Source: a virus
Strand: one strand, 5' to 3'
Virus record (IMG/VR): IMGVR_UViG_3300036790_000551
Span: 28,832-92,831 of that record
DNA length: 64,000 bases
Shown here: positions 2,497-44,798 of the stretch, piece after piece
Layout: the number at the start of each line of letters is the position of its first letter
Numbering within the stretch: the stretch's first letter is position 1
Made by a program: the position numbers and the translations under genes
The notes under the pieces: model-generated
Told to the model about the DNA's origin: nothing
Seen by the model: only the letters and a program-made list of their open reading frames with translations
Database searches by the model: none

Positions 2497-2511
2497 GCGG
2501 TATGATGGGTC
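2497..2511 (+). promoter_or_regulatory. Putative leaderless promoter for the W-x-x-S...C protein array
   Basis: GCGGTATGAT with TATGAT at 2501-2506, 5 nt before ATG 2512; no SD. Confidence 0.6.
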
Positions 2512-2748
2512 ATGGCGTACATTCCCGTGGCTCCCGAACTGGCAGAGAAAAGAGCGAGGCTCCAAGAGAACCTCATTGAGGCCGCTGCGGCTCTTGGACG
2601 AGCGAAGGCCCTCGCCGATGAAATCGGTGTAGAGTTCACTTTCCTGGACCGGACGTACCATCCGAAGCAACAGAAAGTCATCGAGGGCGGTTGGGACTAC
2701 GAAGACGCTGATGACTGGCAGAGTTCCGGTCCTGGGATTGGGTGTTGA
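2512..2748 (+). CDS. Small acidic protein, W-x-x-S...C family paralog 1
   Basis: Amphipathic helix, GVEFTFL, ends DDWQSSGPGIGC. Confidence 0.75.
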   Translation: MAYIPVAPELAEKRARLQENLIEAAAALGRAKALADEIGVEFTFLDRTYHPKQQKVIEGGWDYEDADDWQSSGPGIGC

Positions 2749-2785
2749 TGTGTGGGAGCACATCGGACAGACTGCTCTAGGGTCC

Positions 2786-3040
2786 ATGACCAAGGACGAG
2801 GGCCAGCAGCGAGCCCAGGAACTCTTGAGCCAGGCCGAGAAGTTGGTCCGTGAGGCCCAGGACATCGGCGAACACTTCGGCTTCGACCTCAACTTTCTCG
2901 GTGCCCGCTACGACGGAAGTGATGAGATGTGGAGCGTCACTCGGTTCGAGCATACCGTCGAGTGGTCTTCGTCCTCTTTCTGTATCGAGGACCTCGGCCC
3001 GCAGGACTTCAAGCGTCGGATGGAGGGAAAGAGACCGTGA
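2786..3040 (+). CDS. W-x-x-S...C family paralog 2 (alternative GTG start 2750)
   Basis: ELLSQAEKLVREAQDIGEHFGFDLNFLGARY ... EWSSSSFC. Confidence 0.7.
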   Translation: MTKDEGQQRAQELLSQAEKLVREAQDIGEHFGFDLNFLGARYDGSDEMWSVTRFEHTVEWSSSSFCIEDLGPQDFKRRMEGKRP

Positions 3041-3381
3041 TGGACGATAAAAAGAAGACCGAACTGCAGAAGGAAGCGCAGTCGCTTCTTAGCGAGGCCA
3101 AGAAGTTATTGAATCAGGCAGGAGCGCTCGCTAGTCAGGGCGGCTTCACCCTCCATTTTGCGGGCGGAGGCGACTACATCCCGAAGAAACTCATGAACCT
3201 CGAGTACTGGCGCGCCCTCGCTGTCGAGGAACTCAAGCAGGAGGGAATAGAGGACCCGGATGAAGAGAGGGTCAACGACCTAGCCACCGACATGCGTGGC
3301 GACTGCGACATTCCGTACACGTATCTTGAGTACGCCGATGAGGACGATGGCGACGTCTGGTGGCAGCCCTCAAGTTGCTGA
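3040..3381 (+). CDS. W-x-x-S...C family paralog 3
   Basis: SLLSEAKKLLNQAGALASQGGFTLHFAGGGDY ... DGDVWWQPSSC; start overlaps upstream stop. Confidence 0.75.
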   Translation: MDDKKKTELQKEAQSLLSEAKKLLNQAGALASQGGFTLHFAGGGDYIPKKLMNLEYWRALAVEELKQEGIEDPDEERVNDLATDMRGDCDIPYTYLEYADEDDGDVWWQPSSC

Positions 3382-3390
3382 GGGGCTTGG

Positions 3391-3870
3391 TTTCATCCAT
3401 GCTTATCCGGTTAACACCCAAGGAGTGACGTAATGCGCAAGAAAGATGAGCTAGACAAGAAGAACACCTGCATGTCGCACGCCCACTCCAAAGAAATGGT
3501 GTTCGTGCTGCTGAGCCGCGATGCGGCGGCGCCTGTCGCTATTCGTGCGTGGGTCGCCGAGCGCCTGCGGCTCGGCAAGAACGTCGAAAGCGACGAGCAG
3601 GTCGTCGAGGCGCTGGCGTGCGCGCAGACGATGGAAACCGAGGGACGCAAGTGGGTTGGCCATCCCGAGCACTATCCGTTCGGCATGGGTGAGGAATCGC
3701 GGCGGTTGCACCGTGAATACGACCGACTTGTTCGCGAGCAAGCGGCCGGAGCCAAGAATGGCGCAGAAGTCCGCAGGTTGACTGACGAGTGCGAGGCGAA
3801 GGGCATCATCCTTGTCACGGGTGGCGAGAACCTGTGACGTTGGGTGACAACCGGATAAGCATGGTTTCAT
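3391..3870. mobile_element. Transposase-less cassette with 25-bp terminal inverted repeats and flanking TTTCAT direct repeats
   Basis: 3397-3421 matches the reverse complement of 3840-3864 at 23/25; TTTCAT at 3391-3396 and 3865-3870. Confidence 0.6.
3433..3837 (+). CDS. Hypothetical phage protein carried inside the inverted-repeat cassette
   Basis: AAGGAG SD before ATG; FVLLSRDAAAP motif; unrelated to the flanking paralogs. Confidence 0.75.
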   Translation: MRKKDELDKKNTCMSHAHSKEMVFVLLSRDAAAPVAIRAWVAERLRLGKNVESDEQVVEALACAQTMETEGRKWVGHPEHYPFGMGEESRRLHREYDRLVREQAAGAKNGAEVRRLTDECEAKGIILVTGGENL

Positions 3871-3891
3871 CTACACGGGAAGGATTCACGA

Positions 3892-4212
3892 ATGCCTATG
3901 AAGTCTACGGACAAGCATGAGAAGTCTACGGACAAGCATGAGAAGCACCTACAGACGCTCCTGGTGAAGGCCCAGGAGGCATTGGACGAGGTCAAGCACT
4001 ATGCCGTGCTTCACAACCTGGAGTTCGAGTTCGCAGGCCTCCGTCGAGGCTTGGAGGGTAGAGACTACGGACCCGTCACCCGAGAGGACTTCGGTGGCGA
4101 GGACGATGAGTATCTCCAGCGTGAAATCAAGGCCGGCCGATACAGCGTCAAGGTAAGCAGCCTCGACTTCGATAGCAAATGGATGGGCTCCTGGTCCCCG
4201 GGATGCGGCTGA
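3892..4212 (+). CDS. W-x-x-S...C family paralog 4
   Basis: TLLVKAQEALDEVKHYAVLHNLEFEFAG ... KWMGSWSPGCG. Confidence 0.7.
   Translation: MPMKSTDKHEKSTDKHEKHLQTLLVKAQEALDEVKHYAVLHNLEFEFAGLRRGLEGRDYGPVTREDFGGEDDEYLQREIKAGRYSVKVSSLDFDSKWMGSWSPGCG
3901..3942 (+). repeat. Perfect 21-bp tandem duplication (KSTDKHE x2)
   Basis: AAGTCTACGGACAAGCATGAG twice. Confidence 0.9.
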
Positions 4213-4215
4213 GCC

Positions 4216-4617
4216 GTGACCGACGATGTTCATGAACCGGGACCTGTCAGACCGCTGACTGCGGTCGAACTCCGACGGGAGGAGGGCCATGCGAAGATGC
4301 AGGCGCTCCTGGTCTCCCTCAAGGAGACCATCGACGTCATGTGGGACGTCGCGACTGAGCACGGCATCGAACGGGTCGAGTTCATGGGAAACTACCTCCA
4401 CTTCGGGACGGACTTCGGGTACGGCAACTGGGACAGTTTCTCTAATCGCTTTGTCAAGACCGAGGATGGGTTCGAGGCCGCTGTCGGCGGTCCGGTTCTC
4501 AACGATGAGTATTGGTCGCAATCCTCCTATGGCTGCTGGATTGATGATAAGGCTCGGGCGTGGATGTGGGGACCTGACCCTGCGAAATGGCGGAAGACGA
4601 GTTACGATGAAGACTGA
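4216..4617 (+). CDS. W-x-x-S...C family paralog 5
   Basis: ALLVSLKETIDVMWDVATEHGIERVEFMGNY ... EYWSQSSYGC. Confidence 0.7.
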   Translation: MTDDVHEPGPVRPLTAVELRREEGHAKMQALLVSLKETIDVMWDVATEHGIERVEFMGNYLHFGTDFGYGNWDSFSNRFVKTEDGFEAAVGGPVLNDEYWSQSSYGCWIDDKARAWMWGPDPAKWRKTSYDED

Positions 4618-4625
4618 CGACGGCT

Positions 4626-4641
4626 GCGGTATGATGTCCGC
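4626..4641 (+). promoter_or_regulatory. Putative leaderless promoter
   Basis: GCGGTATGAT, 6 nt, then ATG 4642. Confidence 0.6.
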
Positions 4642-5637
4642 ATGCTTCTCATCGGTTCCAAGGCGCTGAGGCTTCGAGGCATCGACACCGGACGGCCGCC
4701 TCTCGACGTCGACGTCATCGCGACCTTCGACGAACTTGGCAAACTCACGCGATGGATGTCGGCCCGCAGTCGGACGGTTTCGATTCCCCTCTCCGTCAAC
4801 AAGACGGTCCTTAAGTCTGTTGATGGAACGATAGTTGAGGTCGAGATTGCCTGGCCGGACACCGCGGCCCACTCCCTCCTCACCGAGGGGAGCGTCTGGG
4901 CCCCTGACGTCAAGGACGACTGGTTGATGTCCGCGAACGGGTTCCCGCATCCGTTCGACGTTCAGGTCGCCACCCTGGACCAACTCTATGCACTGAAGAT
5001 GTCCCATCGGTACCTGAAGAACAGTCCGCACTTCCTGAAGACGATGCGTGACATCCAACTGATGCGGAGCATGGGTGCCAAGGTCGTCAGCGCAGACTGG
5101 CTGAAGCGGCGTGAACTCGAGACCTACACCTACAAGCATCCGAAGTTGAACGTGATGAAGAAGGACTTCTTCACGGGCGACGGCGTCCAGTACGTCTTCG
5201 AACACGACGACATCCACGTCGCGATGGCTCACTTCAGCGGTAAGTGTGGTGACCCTGTTCCTGCCTACACCCTCTACGCTAAGGACGGTGAGCAGGTTAA
5301 GAGCGACAAAGTCAAGTTCCTCTCTCTCTCAGAGGATGTTCGCCTCTACGGCGTCCTCGAGGAGGCCCAGGTCCTGGCCTTGGAGCGCAGCCAGATACCC
5401 TTCCGTGGTAAGGTGGAGGCACGTCGGTCGTTCGACATCGCGCTGATGAAGGTCTGTACCAGCATCACGAGCGGTTGGTTCCGGGAGTATGCCTGGGAGA
5501 ATTTCGACCGCGTGAACCTGCTCTACGAGAACGACTACGTAGAGCGTTTCTGGAGGGCCGTCGACGACGGACACGTGAGGAAGATTGCTGAAGCCGACCG
5601 ACAGGACCCTGTTAGTAACCCACAAAAATTGCCTTGA
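4642..5637 (+). CDS. Nucleotidyltransferase-fold protein (Pol-beta-like N-terminus, helical C-terminal domain)
   Basis: LLIGSKAL ... DVDVI (GS plus DxD); further motifs LKMSHRY, HDDIH, EEAQVLALER, CTSITSGWFR. Confidence 0.6.
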   Translation: MLLIGSKALRLRGIDTGRPPLDVDVIATFDELGKLTRWMSARSRTVSIPLSVNKTVLKSVDGTIVEVEIAWPDTAAHSLLTEGSVWAPDVKDDWLMSANGFPHPFDVQVATLDQLYALKMSHRYLKNSPHFLKTMRDIQLMRSMGAKVVSADWLKRRELETYTYKHPKLNVMKKDFFTGDGVQYVFEHDDIHVAMAHFSGKCGDPVPAYTLYAKDGEQVKSDKVKFLSLSEDVRLYGVLEEAQVLALERSQIPFRGKVEARRSFDIALMKVCTSITSGWFREYAWENFDRVNLLYENDYVERFWRAVDDGHVRKIAEADRQDPVSNPQKLP

Positions 5638-6511
5638 CGGCACCGGTTCCGCGTTCGTCTTCGTGAAGGCCGGCGGCCTGCAGGCCAACGTTCGCTTTCG
5701 GTTGCCGAACAACTGCGTCCTCAAGCCCAATGACGTCATGGGCCTCGACGAGGTGTGGTTCGTTGACGTCTGCCCATCGGACCTGACCGACCCGGCCGGC
5801 GGACTTCCGTTTCGGGTCATCGACCATCACGTGACGAACGTCCGTCGATTCGATGGTGACCCCCGCTGCACGTTCTCCCTGGACCACAGCGGAACGTCGC
5901 TGTTGGCCCGAGAGGTCGGGCTCGTGGGCTTTGACCGCCTAGTTCGGGCCCTGGAGGCGTACGACCTCGGGCGGTTCCATGACGCCGACGGCATGCTGCT
6001 AGCCGACCTCGCCTCGACATACGCCCAGGACGAGATGCTGAATCGACTCGTCGGAAGGCTTTCGAAGTCTGAGAACCTTTACGACAGCCATCCGATTCTC
6101 GATAGCGAGTACTTCGTGGCCCGCGCCGAGGGGGTCGCGGGAATGCGTGATGATTGGGCCCGGCGCTGCGCCCGGTCTGCCTACGTCTTCATCCTCGATG
6201 ACAACTATGCCCTCGACGACCGCCGGTTCGTGGCAGCCCTCGCGGTCTGTCCGCCTAACTGGACAAACGCCGTCTCCCAGGCCATCATGGACCGGGACGA
6301 CTTCAGGTACTGCGGAGCGGACGTGTCAGTGCAGGTCGCCGTCTGCGTCGACCCAAACGGTGGACAGGTGAGCCTGCGGACCCGGGACGACGCCGTCGAC
6401 TGTAGTAGGATAGCCGAGGGCTTCGGCGGCGGCGGGCACCGTAAGGCAGCAGGTTTTCGGACCGTCGGCGGCACCGGCCTCCGCGGTCTCATTGAGGAGA
6501 TATTCGAATGA
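5585..6511 (+). CDS. DHH/DHHA1 phosphoesterase (NrnB-like)
   Basis: THKNCLDG, IDHH, SLRT, GGGGHRKAAGF. Confidence 0.9.
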   Translation: MLKPTDRTLLVTHKNCLDGTGSAFVFVKAGGLQANVRFRLPNNCVLKPNDVMGLDEVWFVDVCPSDLTDPAGGLPFRVIDHHVTNVRRFDGDPRCTFSLDHSGTSLLAREVGLVGFDRLVRALEAYDLGRFHDADGMLLADLASTYAQDEMLNRLVGRLSKSENLYDSHPILDSEYFVARAEGVAGMRDDWARRCARSAYVFILDDNYALDDRRFVAALAVCPPNWTNAVSQAIMDRDDFRYCGADVSVQVAVCVDPNGGQVSLRTRDDAVDCSRIAEGFGGGGHRKAAGFRTVGGTGLRGLIEEIFE

Positions 6512-7542
6512 GCCTCAGGGTTTACGGCGACAGTCTGAACTTCATCCATCGGGCGTTGATGCGAGAGTTAGCGGAGGACCCGGAGTGCGAGAGCGCTCCC
6601 CGAGGCAAACCAATCAAGGAACTCATCGCGTCGTCGTTCACGTTGACGGACCCTCGAAACCGGCTCATTACGAGTCCGGCCCGGAAGATGAACTACGGGT
6701 TCAGCGTCGGGGAGTTCTGTTGGTACCTCCGGGGAGACACGGACCTCGAGACGATGGTCTATTACAACAAGCGGATGGCCCAGTTCTCTGATGACGGAAA
6801 GACCATCAACTCCGCCTACGGAGACAGGATGTTCAATCCGACGCCGGGATACGCCTACGGCGTCATCAACGGGAAGTTTGGGCCATACTCCCCGTTCGAG
6901 TTTGTGATGGCGGAACTCAAGAGGGACCCCGACAGTCGTCGGGCCGTGATGCACATTAACCGGTCCCATGACCTCATCAACGCTGTCTCCAACGGGTCCA
7001 AGGACGTCCCCTGTACTATGTCCCTGCAACTCCTCGTCAGGAACCGGAAGTTGCATATGCACGTGCTGATGAGGAGCAGCGACATCAATTGGGGGCTTCC
7101 TCACGATGTCTTTAGTTTCACGTGCCTCCAAGAGGTCTTTCTCTATGAGTTACAGGCCGCCGGGGTGCCGGTCGATGACCTGGGGGAGTACCACCACACG
7201 GCAGGCTCCCTCCACCTCTATGAGCCATTTTACGGCCTGGCCAAGGAGATAGCGGCCGAGCCCCTTGAGACCCCTGCTCCGATGAGCCCGTTCACTCTGG
7301 CACAGGTCCAGGGACTGGCTGAGGTGATTGAGCCGGCCATTCGGAACGGAGACCGAGGCAACCTCCTCAACGTTGGAACCTCAGAGGGAACGGAGACGCT
7401 CTCGTGGATGACCGACCGCCTACTCGACCATCGCGTGAAGCGAGAAGCCGAGGAGGTTGAGCGCAACCGAAAGGACGCCGCTTTGAACGAACTTAGTCGA
7501 TTGTCTGAAGAGATTCTTGCCGAGAAGGAGACCGAGAAGTGA
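6508..7542 (+). CDS. Thymidylate synthase-family enzyme, dCMP-specific type (dCMP hydroxymethylase-like)
   Basis: NSAYG, DVPCT, MRSSDINWGLPHD (Asp where ThyA has Asn), GSLHLY. Confidence 0.8.
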   Translation: MSLRVYGDSLNFIHRALMRELAEDPECESAPRGKPIKELIASSFTLTDPRNRLITSPARKMNYGFSVGEFCWYLRGDTDLETMVYYNKRMAQFSDDGKTINSAYGDRMFNPTPGYAYGVINGKFGPYSPFEFVMAELKRDPDSRRAVMHINRSHDLINAVSNGSKDVPCTMSLQLLVRNRKLHMHVLMRSSDINWGLPHDVFSFTCLQEVFLYELQAAGVPVDDLGEYHHTAGSLHLYEPFYGLAKEIAAEPLETPAPMSPFTLAQVQGLAEVIEPAIRNGDRGNLLNVGTSEGTETLSWMTDRLLDHRVKREAEEVERNRKDAALNELSRLSEEILAEKETEK

Positions 7543-7952
7543 GCAGTCGCCCCGACATCGAACTTGCCCTGGACGTCCGCAGCCATGAGCGCGTCGTCGT
7601 GCTGGCTTCCTCGGACTCCGAGTATGAGTATCCGGAGCATTGGATTCGTCCGTCCCGAGCCGCGGAACTTGAGCAGATAGACGAGGCCACTGTGGTCATC
7701 GTCGACCGCGCCGAGTTGCAGCGCCGCACCCTGACGACGGTCGCTGAGCGCCGTCCGCGGCTCCTGGCCGTCTCTCCGAACGGAGTGGAGGGGGAGAAGG
7801 CCGCTCGCCGGATGTTGACATCGCTCTTTCCGTGGTCCGAGGTCTGGACGATACAGACGGCGTTCGGTCGACTCCTGGTCACGAAGGACGCGGTCGGGCC
7901 GGTGTACGACCGAGAGCAACTCGTTGACATGAGAACGTCCGGAGCGGCCTGA
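7539..7952 (+). CDS. Hypothetical protein
   Basis: GTGA overlap with upstream gene; lies between the dCMP enzyme and the dCTPase-like gene. Confidence 0.65.
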   Translation: MSSRPDIELALDVRSHERVVVLASSDSEYEYPEHWIRPSRAAELEQIDEATVVIVDRAELQRRTLTTVAERRPRLLAVSPNGVEGEKAARRMLTSLFPWSEVWTIQTAFGRLLVTKDAVGPVYDREQLVDMRTSGAA

Positions 7953-7953
7953 G

Positions 7954-8319
7954 ATGGCAGACAAATTGGACAAGGTCTTTGTGAAGCAGCGCGAGTTCGT
8001 CGACATGCTCGTCGAGCACGACAAGTTTCCGGAGTATCCGGTCGACTTGACGACAAAAATCGGGCAACGGTTTGCCAAGGAGGTCATCTTCAATCTTTCT
8101 GAAGAACTCTTTGAGGCTTCGTTTACCCTGAAGAACCGTCAGCACAAGTTGAGCAACGACAACGAGTTGGACTTCGAACACTATCGTGAAGAACTCGGTG
8201 ATGCGTTCGCGTACTTCATTGAACTCTGTCTCATCAGCGGCATCTCGGCCGACGACATCTACGAGGAGTACACCCGAAAGAACGCTATCGTGAAGCAGCG
8301 ATTGGCGGACGGGTACTGA
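7954..8319 (+). CDS. All-alpha NTP pyrophosphatase (MazG/dimeric dUTPase, T4 gp56 dCTPase-like)
   Basis: EELFEA ... EELGDAF ... YTRKNAIVKQRLADGY. Confidence 0.8.
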   Translation: MADKLDKVFVKQREFVDMLVEHDKFPEYPVDLTTKIGQRFAKEVIFNLSEELFEASFTLKNRQHKLSNDNELDFEHYREELGDAFAYFIELCLISGISADDIYEEYTRKNAIVKQRLADGY

Positions 8320-28785: not shown

Positions 28786-29201
28786 CGGCGACCGTTGCCC
28801 GAGAGCGAGTCGAGCCAGTCGCCGTCGGCCTCGGTCTCGTCGTCGGGAGCGCCCGCGTCCTGCGCGGAGCCGACGTTCATGCCGCCCGGCACGGACCCAC
28901 CGGTCGCCTGGGGCAGCATGCTGCCCTTCGATGGCGGTCCGAAGAGGGGGTTGGTCTGGCCCGGCCTATCCGTCCCGTTGGGAATCGGCGGCGGTGGCTT
29001 TCCCTGGCCCCTCATCGCCGGACGCTGGCCGTCCTGGGCCGCGCCGGTGCCGCTCGCGTTGAAGTACGGCATCGGACCCTGTTTGTTGCGGCGGTCCATG
29101 GTGCCGTAGCGGGCGATGTTGCGTCGCTTGGCGACGGCGTCCCAGTTCGCCTCGGTCTCGATGCCGAGCGCCTCGGCCAGCCGCATCCAAGAGTTGCTCA
29201 T
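28782..29201 (-). CDS. G/P-rich protein, candidate internal virion protein
   Basis: Minus-strand gene within plus block; N-terminus MSNSWMRL. Confidence 0.6.
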   Translation of the reverse strand: MSNSWMRLAEALGIETEANWDAVAKRRNIARYGTMDRRNKQGPMPYFNASGTGAAQDGQRPAMRGQGKPPPPIPNGTDRPGQTNPLFGPPSKGSMLPQATGGSVPGGMNVGSAQDAGAPDDETEADGDWLDSLSGNGRR

Positions 29202-34148: not shown

Positions 34149-34328
34149 CAGCGTAAGAGACGCAGACCGTGAACTACTACTACTTGTTCGGGCTCCCAAT
34201 TGTCCTCGCCGCGCTCTGGCTGGTCGGATGGGTTGCCGCAGGTCGCGAGCGTGAGCGCGCTCGCTTGCGAGCGCGCGGTCTGGCTAGCGATGTACCGCAA
34301 CGTTGTTGCGGTATGATGTGGAGGTAAC

Positions 34329-44297: not shown

Positions 44298-44798
44298 GCG
44301 TCTAGGTAGCCGCCTCGCACCGAAGTCCGTCGTGGTATAGTGGAAGCATGCCTATCCGGTTGTCAAGGAGCACGTAAGTGAGCAAGCGTGAAGGACCGAA
44401 GGTCTATATCGATGCGTCGTGTTTCGATTGTGCCTACGAGCATAGTGAGCACTACGCGGTGCAGGCCGGTGCTGAGTGACAACTGGACGGCAGGCCTGGA
44501 TGGGCACATGCGGCTGGAGCAGTTACCGCCTCTCGTATGACGCGCCCGAGGTCGATGAGCAGCCGGTCGTCGGCGCGATATACACCCGATACGAGGAGAC
44601 GTGGCTCATGACGGACATCGGCGAGGAGAGGATGCTTGACCGCGTCGGAACAGGTGAGCGCTTCGAGTGCCTCGGCACGTGGTCGTTCGCCGGAGAGGAA
44701 GCCCCATCGGCATTCTATACCGAGCGAATGCCGGCCGACGAGGCCTTCGTAGTCTGTCGGGGTCGTAGGGAGTTCATTCGATTGAGGAGGTACTGCGC

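Follow-up and report, generated by a model that had tools for sequence, protein, structure and literature searches.

The window analyzed here is a 64,000-nucleotide stretch (positions 28,832 to 92,831, one strand) of the IMG/VR virus record IMGVR_UViG_3300036790_000551, a 92.8-kb contig that is judged to be about 45% complete. Its G+C content is about 60%. Near its 5' end are five small, divergent genes (s1 to s5) that lead directly into the gene for a nucleotidyltransferase (NTase)-like enzyme (Table 1). Relatives of these small proteins, which typically end in a conserved cysteine, accompany the same enzyme in many other phages, and most likely they are its dedicated partners in a two-part phage module. 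The data establish that a dedicated two-gene module exists.

An initial annotation of this stretch had proposed that five open reading frames (ORFs) form one family of paralogs with a shared Trp-Ser-Cys motif. All five occur on the plus strand at the starts that it gave, and the tails that it quoted are exact. The proteins have a common layout of a long N-terminal helix, a G-h-x-F-x-F hairpin, a variable acidic stretch, and the Trp-Ser-Cys motif, and their mutual identity is 28-30%. The s2 frame at its longest begins at position 2711, within s1, and the start codon of s3 overlaps the stop codon of s2 (TGATG). To describe the family without its tail, we used a hidden Markov model (HMM) of the protein body that was trained on members from other phages alone, with the last nine residues cut off. 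Against a database of the five sequences, this body-only model recovers s1 to s4 with E-values from 2e-10 to 7e-7 and s5 weakly (4e-3), and against about 16,000 ORFs it returns s2 (1.9e-7) and s4 (1.5e-3). Because the tail-less model still finds these proteins, their membership in the family is independent of the tail. The resemblance among the five sequences is beyond chance by this comparison, and s5 appears to be tied to the Cys-tail family by its motif and position beside its weak body match.

For each window paralog, matches in other phages are better than those to its siblings, which argues that they are old, distinct lineages and not the product of a recent expansion. Searches of deposited phages by tblastn with s1 and s3 gave no match, the window copies being too diverged, and close relatives of s2 or s5 were not found in IMG/VR.

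Table 1. Genes and other features at the array and enzyme locus (body-only and phrog_899 values are E-values)
Feature	Position	Strand	Description
Class II ribonucleotide reductase gene			Upstream of the array
GCGGTATGAT, first copy	2497-2506	+	-10-like TATGAT; 5 nt before the s1 ATG
s1	2512-2748	+	78 aa; body-only HMM 1.1e-9; phrog_899 1e-4
s2	2786-3040	+	84 aa from the ATG at 2786; body-only HMM 1.7e-10
s3	3040-3381	+	113 aa; body-only HMM 9e-8; phrog_899 3e-5
Inserted cassette	3389-3871	+	Splits the array between s3 and s4; not part of the module
s4	3892-4212	+	106 aa; body-only HMM 6.6e-7
s5	4216-4617	+	133 aa; GTG start; weak body-only HMM match, 4e-3
GCGGTATGAT, second copy	4626-4635	+	6 nt before the enzyme ATG
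Enzyme	4642-5637	+	331 aa; DUF7277 and DUF7275; 24 nt after s5
DHH phosphoesterase gene	5585-6511		Downstream of the enzyme

Linkage of the small family to the enzyme

Eighty loci were fetched with the enzyme profile, and these contain 14,254 stop-terminated ORFs. The strict form of the tail is present in 144 of the ORFs, 137 of which are on the strand of the enzyme and within 3 kb upstream of it. Dereplication at 85% identity leaves 57 enzyme loci. A small-family member occurs in 55 of these (54 by the body HMM and one by its tail alone), with one to six copies per locus. One of the 57 loci has just 243 nt of upstream sequence, and there is an L050-like group of phages in which the enzyme has no small-family member within 5 kb. 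Among the loci reached in this way through the enzyme, many IMG/VR contigs, as well as Myxococcus phage Mx1 and Pseudomonas phage PPSC2, have next to it small ORFs of like architecture that end in G-W-x-[SAP]-S-S-x-x-C-stop.

As a control for other neighbors, ORFs of at least 60 aa from 58 loci were clustered. Wide recurrence is limited to the small family, the enzyme, and antisense shadow ORFs of the enzyme, and any other family is found in at most eight loci. The specific link between the small family and the enzyme that the initial annotation had suggested is borne out across unrelated phages. The lesser recurrent neighbors (metallophosphoesterase, NAMPT, primase-helicase, DNA ligase, and ThyX) have unrelated functions. 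Surroundings differ almost completely from locus to locus while the pair stays, so the pair persists as its surroundings change. The same clustering rules out the DHH phosphoesterase that is encoded downstream of the enzyme in the window as a conserved partner.

The association is also seen, as far as it was checked, when one starts from the small family. Of 25 matches to a DNA pattern for the tail, three are true members, and the enzyme is immediately downstream of all three. A canonical member matches 45 deposited phage genomes by tblastn, and wherever coordinates were compared or the region was fetched, the enzyme is adjacent to the match or within 4 kb of it. It adjoins such matches in Mx1, ESCO5, nieznany, phiPsa267, PN09, RsoM2USA, and Hallingskeid. 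The pair is carried by Mx1, Otagovirus, T4-like, Phapecoctavirus, and jumbo phages, among others, whose G+C contents cover a wide range. The arrangement of the genes can vary. Three small-family genes in Stenotrophomonas phage Ps15 (L002, 5876-6626) are directly downstream of the enzyme and not upstream, and one small-family member of Hallingskeid is 4 kb from the enzyme.

Two fused proteins and one unusual neighborhood were also observed. A 377-aa protein from a single ENA contig (P0262) has a small Cys-tail domain fused in frame to the enzyme, with a Trp codon at the usual stop position after the Cys. This fusion, which may be an artefact, would fit any model with physical contact. A 630-aa protein from a single Logan contig (P0275) is a fusion of an enzyme homologue with an OB-fold domain (PHA02142) and an RNA-ligase domain. 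In Erwinia phage Hallingskeid (L099), a jumbo phage, the genes for an RNA ligase and a polynucleotide kinase are directly upstream of one small-family gene.

The small Cys-tail family

A profile built from 107 members was searched against 1.84 billion representatives. At least 1753 representatives (50% identity) match at E <= 1e-3, and 527 match at E <= 1e-10. In all of the best 150 matches, the alignment reaches the last residue or comes within two of it. The Cys is last in 148 of these 150, and the W, S, and S of the tail are each kept in 146-148. The tail is at the very C-terminus in 92-99% of members. An HMM that is independent of the tail gives a similar picture, with 139 of 151 distinct matches ending in Cys, nine having 1-18 extra residues, and three lacking the Cys. 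Judged from these alignments, no part of the small family is more conserved than the tail.

The conserved domain is always C-terminal, and the N-terminal extensions and the acidic middle differ in length, so that members range from 64 to 158 aa. They are acidic (median pI 4.4) and typically have a single Cys. The family alignment contains no conserved stretch of 7-10 columns. In PHROGs the family corresponds to phrog_899, whose function is unknown. No Pfam model matches the family, canonical members included, a protein atlas query with a canonical member found nothing, and the extensions do not match any known binding domain.

An AlphaFold2 (AF2) model of s1, with a predicted local distance difference test score (pLDDT) of 80, has a helix at residues 8-38, a hairpin at residues 42-49, and a third strand at residues 69-71 that consists of the W-Q-S of the tail. 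Confidence is low (53-58) in the last 20 residues. If this model is correct, then the Trp is probably a core residue of the small-protein fold, and only the S-S-x-x-C end is likely to be free. Comparison of the model with known structures gave no fold match (best Foldseek E-value 3.4; best VIA Z 3.6).

Tails of the window copies

When its tails are set against the family norm, the window is an atypical, degenerate instance of the module. The s1 protein ends in W-Q-S-S-G-P-G-I-G-C, with the Cys last and five residues between S-S and C, where the norm is two. The s3 protein ends in W-W-Q-P-S-S-C, with none. In s4 (W-M-G-S-W-S-P-G-C-G), one Gly follows the Cys. The W-S-S-S-S-F-C motif of s2 is internal, and the 18 residues after its Cys are the longest such extension among the 151 matches to the tail-independent HMM, a search in which s5 is under the cutoff. 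The s5 motif (W-S-Q-S-S-Y-G-C) has the canonical spacing but is internal, with a 27-aa extension behind it.

A 44%-identical orthologue of s5 from another sample (P0274) keeps an internal W-W-S-A-S-T-F-D-C. It also keeps the post-Cys extension, W-M-W-G-P-D-P-A-x-W-R-K-T-S-Y-D-E, almost residue for residue. The internal motif of s5 is thus not a product of decay, and a subfamily exists that either has a non-terminal Cys or loses the extension at a later stage. With its internal tails, its altered spacing, and the extension that is conserved between orthologues, the window is a source of natural variants that can inform mutagenesis.

A separate feature of s4 is a perfect 21-nt tandem duplication at 3900-3941 that repeats K-S-T-D-K-H-E in its N-terminus. 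It looks like a recent in-frame slippage event.

The enzyme

The initial annotation had recognized the 331-aa gene as GS/DxD nucleotidyltransferase-like, and both its motifs and its modeled fold agree with this assignment. Pfam DUF7277 (PF23942) covers residues 1-80 (E = 2.9e-9; 37.9 bits, cut-off 27), and DUF7275 (PF23940) covers residues 115-300 (E = 3.6e-62; 210 bits, cut-off 27). In PHROGs the enzyme matches phrog_2141 (E = 8e-98). I-G-S at residues 4-6, D22-x-D24 (DVD), and E66 are all intact. Across 58 homologues, G5, S6, D22, and D24 are invariant, E66 is invariant in nine sequences, and the catalytic motifs are retained in 116 of 120 further homologues. The T4-like copies match by tblastn only from residue 110 on and nevertheless carry I-G-S and D-W-D.

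In the second domain, the residues that are invariant in the 58 homologues are K119, H122, K133, T134, R157, H188, D189, H192, E240, E241, E248, R249, K270, S274, and R281. Its K..R ... K..D helix resembles the third motif of the MenT / AbiEii family. The invariant H122 ... H188-D189 ... H192 raised the possibility that DUF7275 is a concealed HD-type phosphohydrolase. This candidate was dropped after the isolated domain gave no Pfam HD signal at E <= 10.

The AlphaFold model of the enzyme has a pLDDT of 90.5 and a predicted template modeling score (pTM) of 0.88. Its top Foldseek match is MenT1 (8an4; E = 3e-4). An exhaustive structural alignment with VIA against 48,161 PDB representatives has as its top matches MenT1 (Z 11.0; root-mean-square deviation 3.7 over 154 aligned residues), along with TglT / MenT3 (Z 9.6), ANT(2'')-Ia (Z 9.3), and MenT4, LnuA, TM1012, and the putative NTase 4ok0 of H. 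pylori (Z 8.8 each). No sequence link to these fold relatives appears in Pfam at E <= 0.1, in PADLOC at E <= 1, or in a PDB sequence search at E <= 1. In the protein atlas, PF14907-type NTases are structural neighbors of the enzyme (template modeling score 0.44-0.46). We place the enzyme in the MenT / ANT(2'') / Lnu structural clade, as a nucleotidyltransferase whose catalytic motifs are intact.

The enzyme family is large and nearly confined to viruses. It comprises at least 2969 clusters at 90% identity, its atlas clusters are 94-100% viral, and 692 of the 50,697 deposited phage genomes carry it, including those of phages that infect E. coli, Acinetobacter, Klebsiella, Pseudomonas, and Aeromonas. 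The window proteins match phrog_899, phrog_2141, and the Pfam entries DUF7275 and DUF7277, which carry no function. A literature search on DUF7275, DUF7277, the PHROG entries, and phage NTase or AMPylation activity found no description of the module or of the pairing. For neither family could we find an assigned function or a publication. When a C-terminal tail is strictly conserved and accompanies a single enzyme, this is the mark of a system for recognition or modification. To learn which group the enzyme writes, and which molecule receives it, could bring to light a new way for phages to control their own proteins or to attack host translation.

Possible functions of the module

The reading that we favor, tentatively and with substantial doubt, is that the enzyme acts on a tail serine of the small proteins. 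Each small protein would consist of a helix packed on a three-stranded sheet with the conserved Trp on the last strand. The short S-S-x-x-Cys end, normally the true C-terminus, would project from this strand and be recognized by the enzyme, which would transfer a nucleotidyl group (or phosphate) from a nucleoside triphosphate to the serine hydroxyl. Old, diverged paralogs with different bodies would then be the clients of a single enzyme, which turns them on or off. In this phage, a separate copy of the GGTATGAT promoter-like element precedes the array and the enzyme.

Three considerations favor this reading: the nearest folds transfer nucleoside monophosphate (NMP) to hydroxyls, the tail is invariant, and one enzyme serves several old paralogs. 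The closest folds add NMP to the 3'-OH of tRNA (MenT) or to OH groups of antibiotics (ANT(2'') and LnuA). In the HEPN-MNT and GlnE/GlnD systems, a nucleotidyltransferase of the Pol-beta superfamily puts NMP on a hydroxyl of a partner protein that is dedicated to it or encoded next to it. These enzymes modify a Tyr on a single defined partner, and there is no sequence or fold match to either system among the top matches of the phage enzyme. Nucleotidylation of the tail serine, which the initial annotation had raised, is a live hypothesis.

A precedent for chemistry at the end of a ribosomal product is PsmN of the pseudomycoidin cluster, an ANT(2'')-like NTase-fold protein that is needed for decorating the C-terminal serine of a lasso peptide (PMC6993621). 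PsmN resembles the phage enzyme as an uncharacterized NTase-fold protein; it has been modeled on ANT(2''), and its activity needs the DxD pair (PMC6993621). It differs in that its substrate is a peptide of 20-odd residues that has already been phosphorylated by a kinase and to which a hexose is added (PMC6993621). Furthermore, PsmN comes from bacteria, and genes for a cyclase, a protease, and an exporter are part of its cluster (PMC6993621). The phage module is accompanied by none of the three.

Several observations weigh against modification of the tail serine. The support for binding or modification comes from genomic and structural inference. MenT1 and MenA1, the closest relatives with known partners, use the small protein as a regulator and not as a substrate. 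In the AF2 model, the Trp strand lies within the fold and the last 20 residues score 53-58, so the accessibility of the serines is uncertain. Within the window, the Cys is terminal in two of five tails (s1 and s3), and both of these have altered spacing. The orthologue-conserved extension of s5 shows that a free C-terminus is not always required. Finally, a single contig is the source of the fused P0262, which may be natural or an artefact of stop-codon read-through.

A broader version of the tail-serine reading is more doubtful still. It holds that large lytic phages have in this pair a dedicated protein-tagging system, in which one MenT/ANT-like enzyme writes a nucleotide, or a nucleotide-derived group, on the Ser-Ser-x-x-Cys ends of an entire family of small folded effectors. 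If true, this would be a post-translational switch without a described counterpart, and it would operate in thousands of phage lineages, including well-studied phages of E. coli, Pseudomonas, and Acinetobacter.

Chief among the rival readings is an arrangement like that of MenAT, which we consider rather unlikely. Here the enzyme would act on RNA, for example at tRNA 3' ends, and the small acidic proteins would regulate or inhibit it, setting its timing or specificity during infection. They might dock in the basic cleft, or they might cause the active-site Ser6 to be auto-phosphorylated. Their median pI of 4.4 speaks for this reading. Binding of a small partner makes MenT toxins transfer phosphate to a Thr or Ser in the active site (PMC11375011), and the short antitoxin of menA1-menT1 brings about auto-phosphorylation of the toxin by binding to it (PMC10435456, PMC11375011). 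The phage locus shares with menA1-menT1 the placement of one or more small genes directly upstream of the NTase gene (PMC10435456, PMC11375011). With MenAT1 and the other MenT / AbiEii (DUF1814) pairs it shares a two-domain NTase fold with hG[GS] and DxD motifs. The best fold matches of the enzyme include MenT1 (Z 11.0), TglT/MenT3 (9.6), and MenT4 (8.8). An RNA-repair context is also suggested by the P0275 fusion and by the RNA ligase and polynucleotide kinase genes of Hallingskeid. However, these RNA links are single cases, and RNA-repair genes do not recur among the neighbors in the 58 loci.

Other differences from MenAT are more extensive. The phage module is found in phages only, and it has no sequence match to PF08843 or to PADLOC models; a DUF1814/AbiEii match is absent from both Pfam and PADLOC. 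Its DUF7275 domain has extra invariant polar residues (H188, D189, H192, E240, E241, E248, R249, and K270). The phage partner belongs to a different and much larger family with an invariant Cys-ended tail, and it occurs in arrays of one to six old paralogs. A single regulator would do, yet each phage has one to six deeply diverged copies. The invariant S-S-x-x-Cys end is not among the features of MenA antitoxins that are described in PMC10435456 and PMC11375011.

In an adaptor model, the domain made up of helix, hairpin, and tail would be a handle for binding the enzyme, and the variable inserts or N-terminal extensions would steer it to host or phage targets. Like tail-serine nucleotidylation, this alternative from the initial annotation is a live hypothesis, although we regard it as improbable. 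The conserved part is always the C-terminal domain, and the N-terminal extensions and acidic middle vary in proteins of 64 to 158 aa. The distinctness of the old paralog lineages, which find better matches in other phages than among their siblings, also fits adaptors. However, none of the extensions resembles a known binding domain, and many members are minimal (64-80 aa), with no room for a target-binding part.

It is more improbable again that the two genes have no functional coupling and are merely co-inherited accessory genes of large lytic phages. The pair is known here from genes alone, the array is downstream of the enzyme in Stenotrophomonas phages, the Hallingskeid member is 4 kb away, and the L050-like group has the enzyme with no member within 5 kb. 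Against simple co-inheritance, the pair persists though neighboring genes differ almost completely between loci, and it spans Mx1, Otagovirus, T4-like, Phapecoctavirus, and jumbo phages of widely differing G+C content.

The reading put forward by the initial annotation, that the ORFs are leader-core precursors of RiPPs (peptides that ribosomes synthesize and that are then altered post-translationally), to be modified, possibly cleaved, and released as a small product, is the least likely of all and hardly credible: a conserved N-terminal helix and a Ser/Cys end beside a tailoring-type enzyme, together with the precedent of PsmN at the C-terminal Ser of a peptide (PMC6993621), speak for it, but the proteins are 78-133 aa in the window and 64-158 aa in the family, the small protein as modeled forms a single compact domain, with the Trp strand of the tail paired to the hairpin and with no leader/core layout, the long, acidic variable region is not conserved, genes for a protease, a recognition element, or a transporter (exporter) do not recur near the module in the 58 loci, and the module is restricted to lytic phages.

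Promoter-like motif and other features of the locus

The initial annotation had also noted a shared leaderless motif before the array and the enzyme. Exact copies of GCGGTATGAT are present at both places (Table 1), but the motif is not specific to this locus. The window contains five exact copies, and there are 11 copies with at most one mismatch when 2.25 are expected. An ATG follows 5-6 nt after four of the GCGGTATGAT copies. Promoter-like sites of the form [GC]GGTATGAT occur at 2497, 4626, 27215, 30118, 30548, 34308, and other positions, and the one at 34308 has a normal GGAGG leader instead of a leaderless ATG. Because the enrichment is window-wide, the motif appears to be a genome-wide promoter-like element with nothing special to the array and enzyme. 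In sequence it looks like the general promoter -10 element of the phage, from which several leaderless starts are served.

The cassette that interrupts the array has 25-nt inverted repeats (3397-3421 and 3840-3864) with arms that are 92% complementary, and direct repeats of GGTTTCATC flank these. It contains one ORF (3433-3837, 134 aa) that is unrelated to the array and has a weak match to phrog_12354, 'transcriptional regulator' (E = 0.003). The cassette could be a mobile element without a transposase or a regulator gene between its own operators. The repeat arm occurs a third time, by itself, at 44347-44365 (18 of 19 bases), just downstream of a TATAGT -10-like box, and this copy favors the reading of the repeat as an operator site.

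Downstream of the DHH phosphoesterase gene, positions 6508-8319 encode a thymidylate-synthase homologue (344 aa) and a MazG-like ORF, which are probably a DNA-modification cluster.

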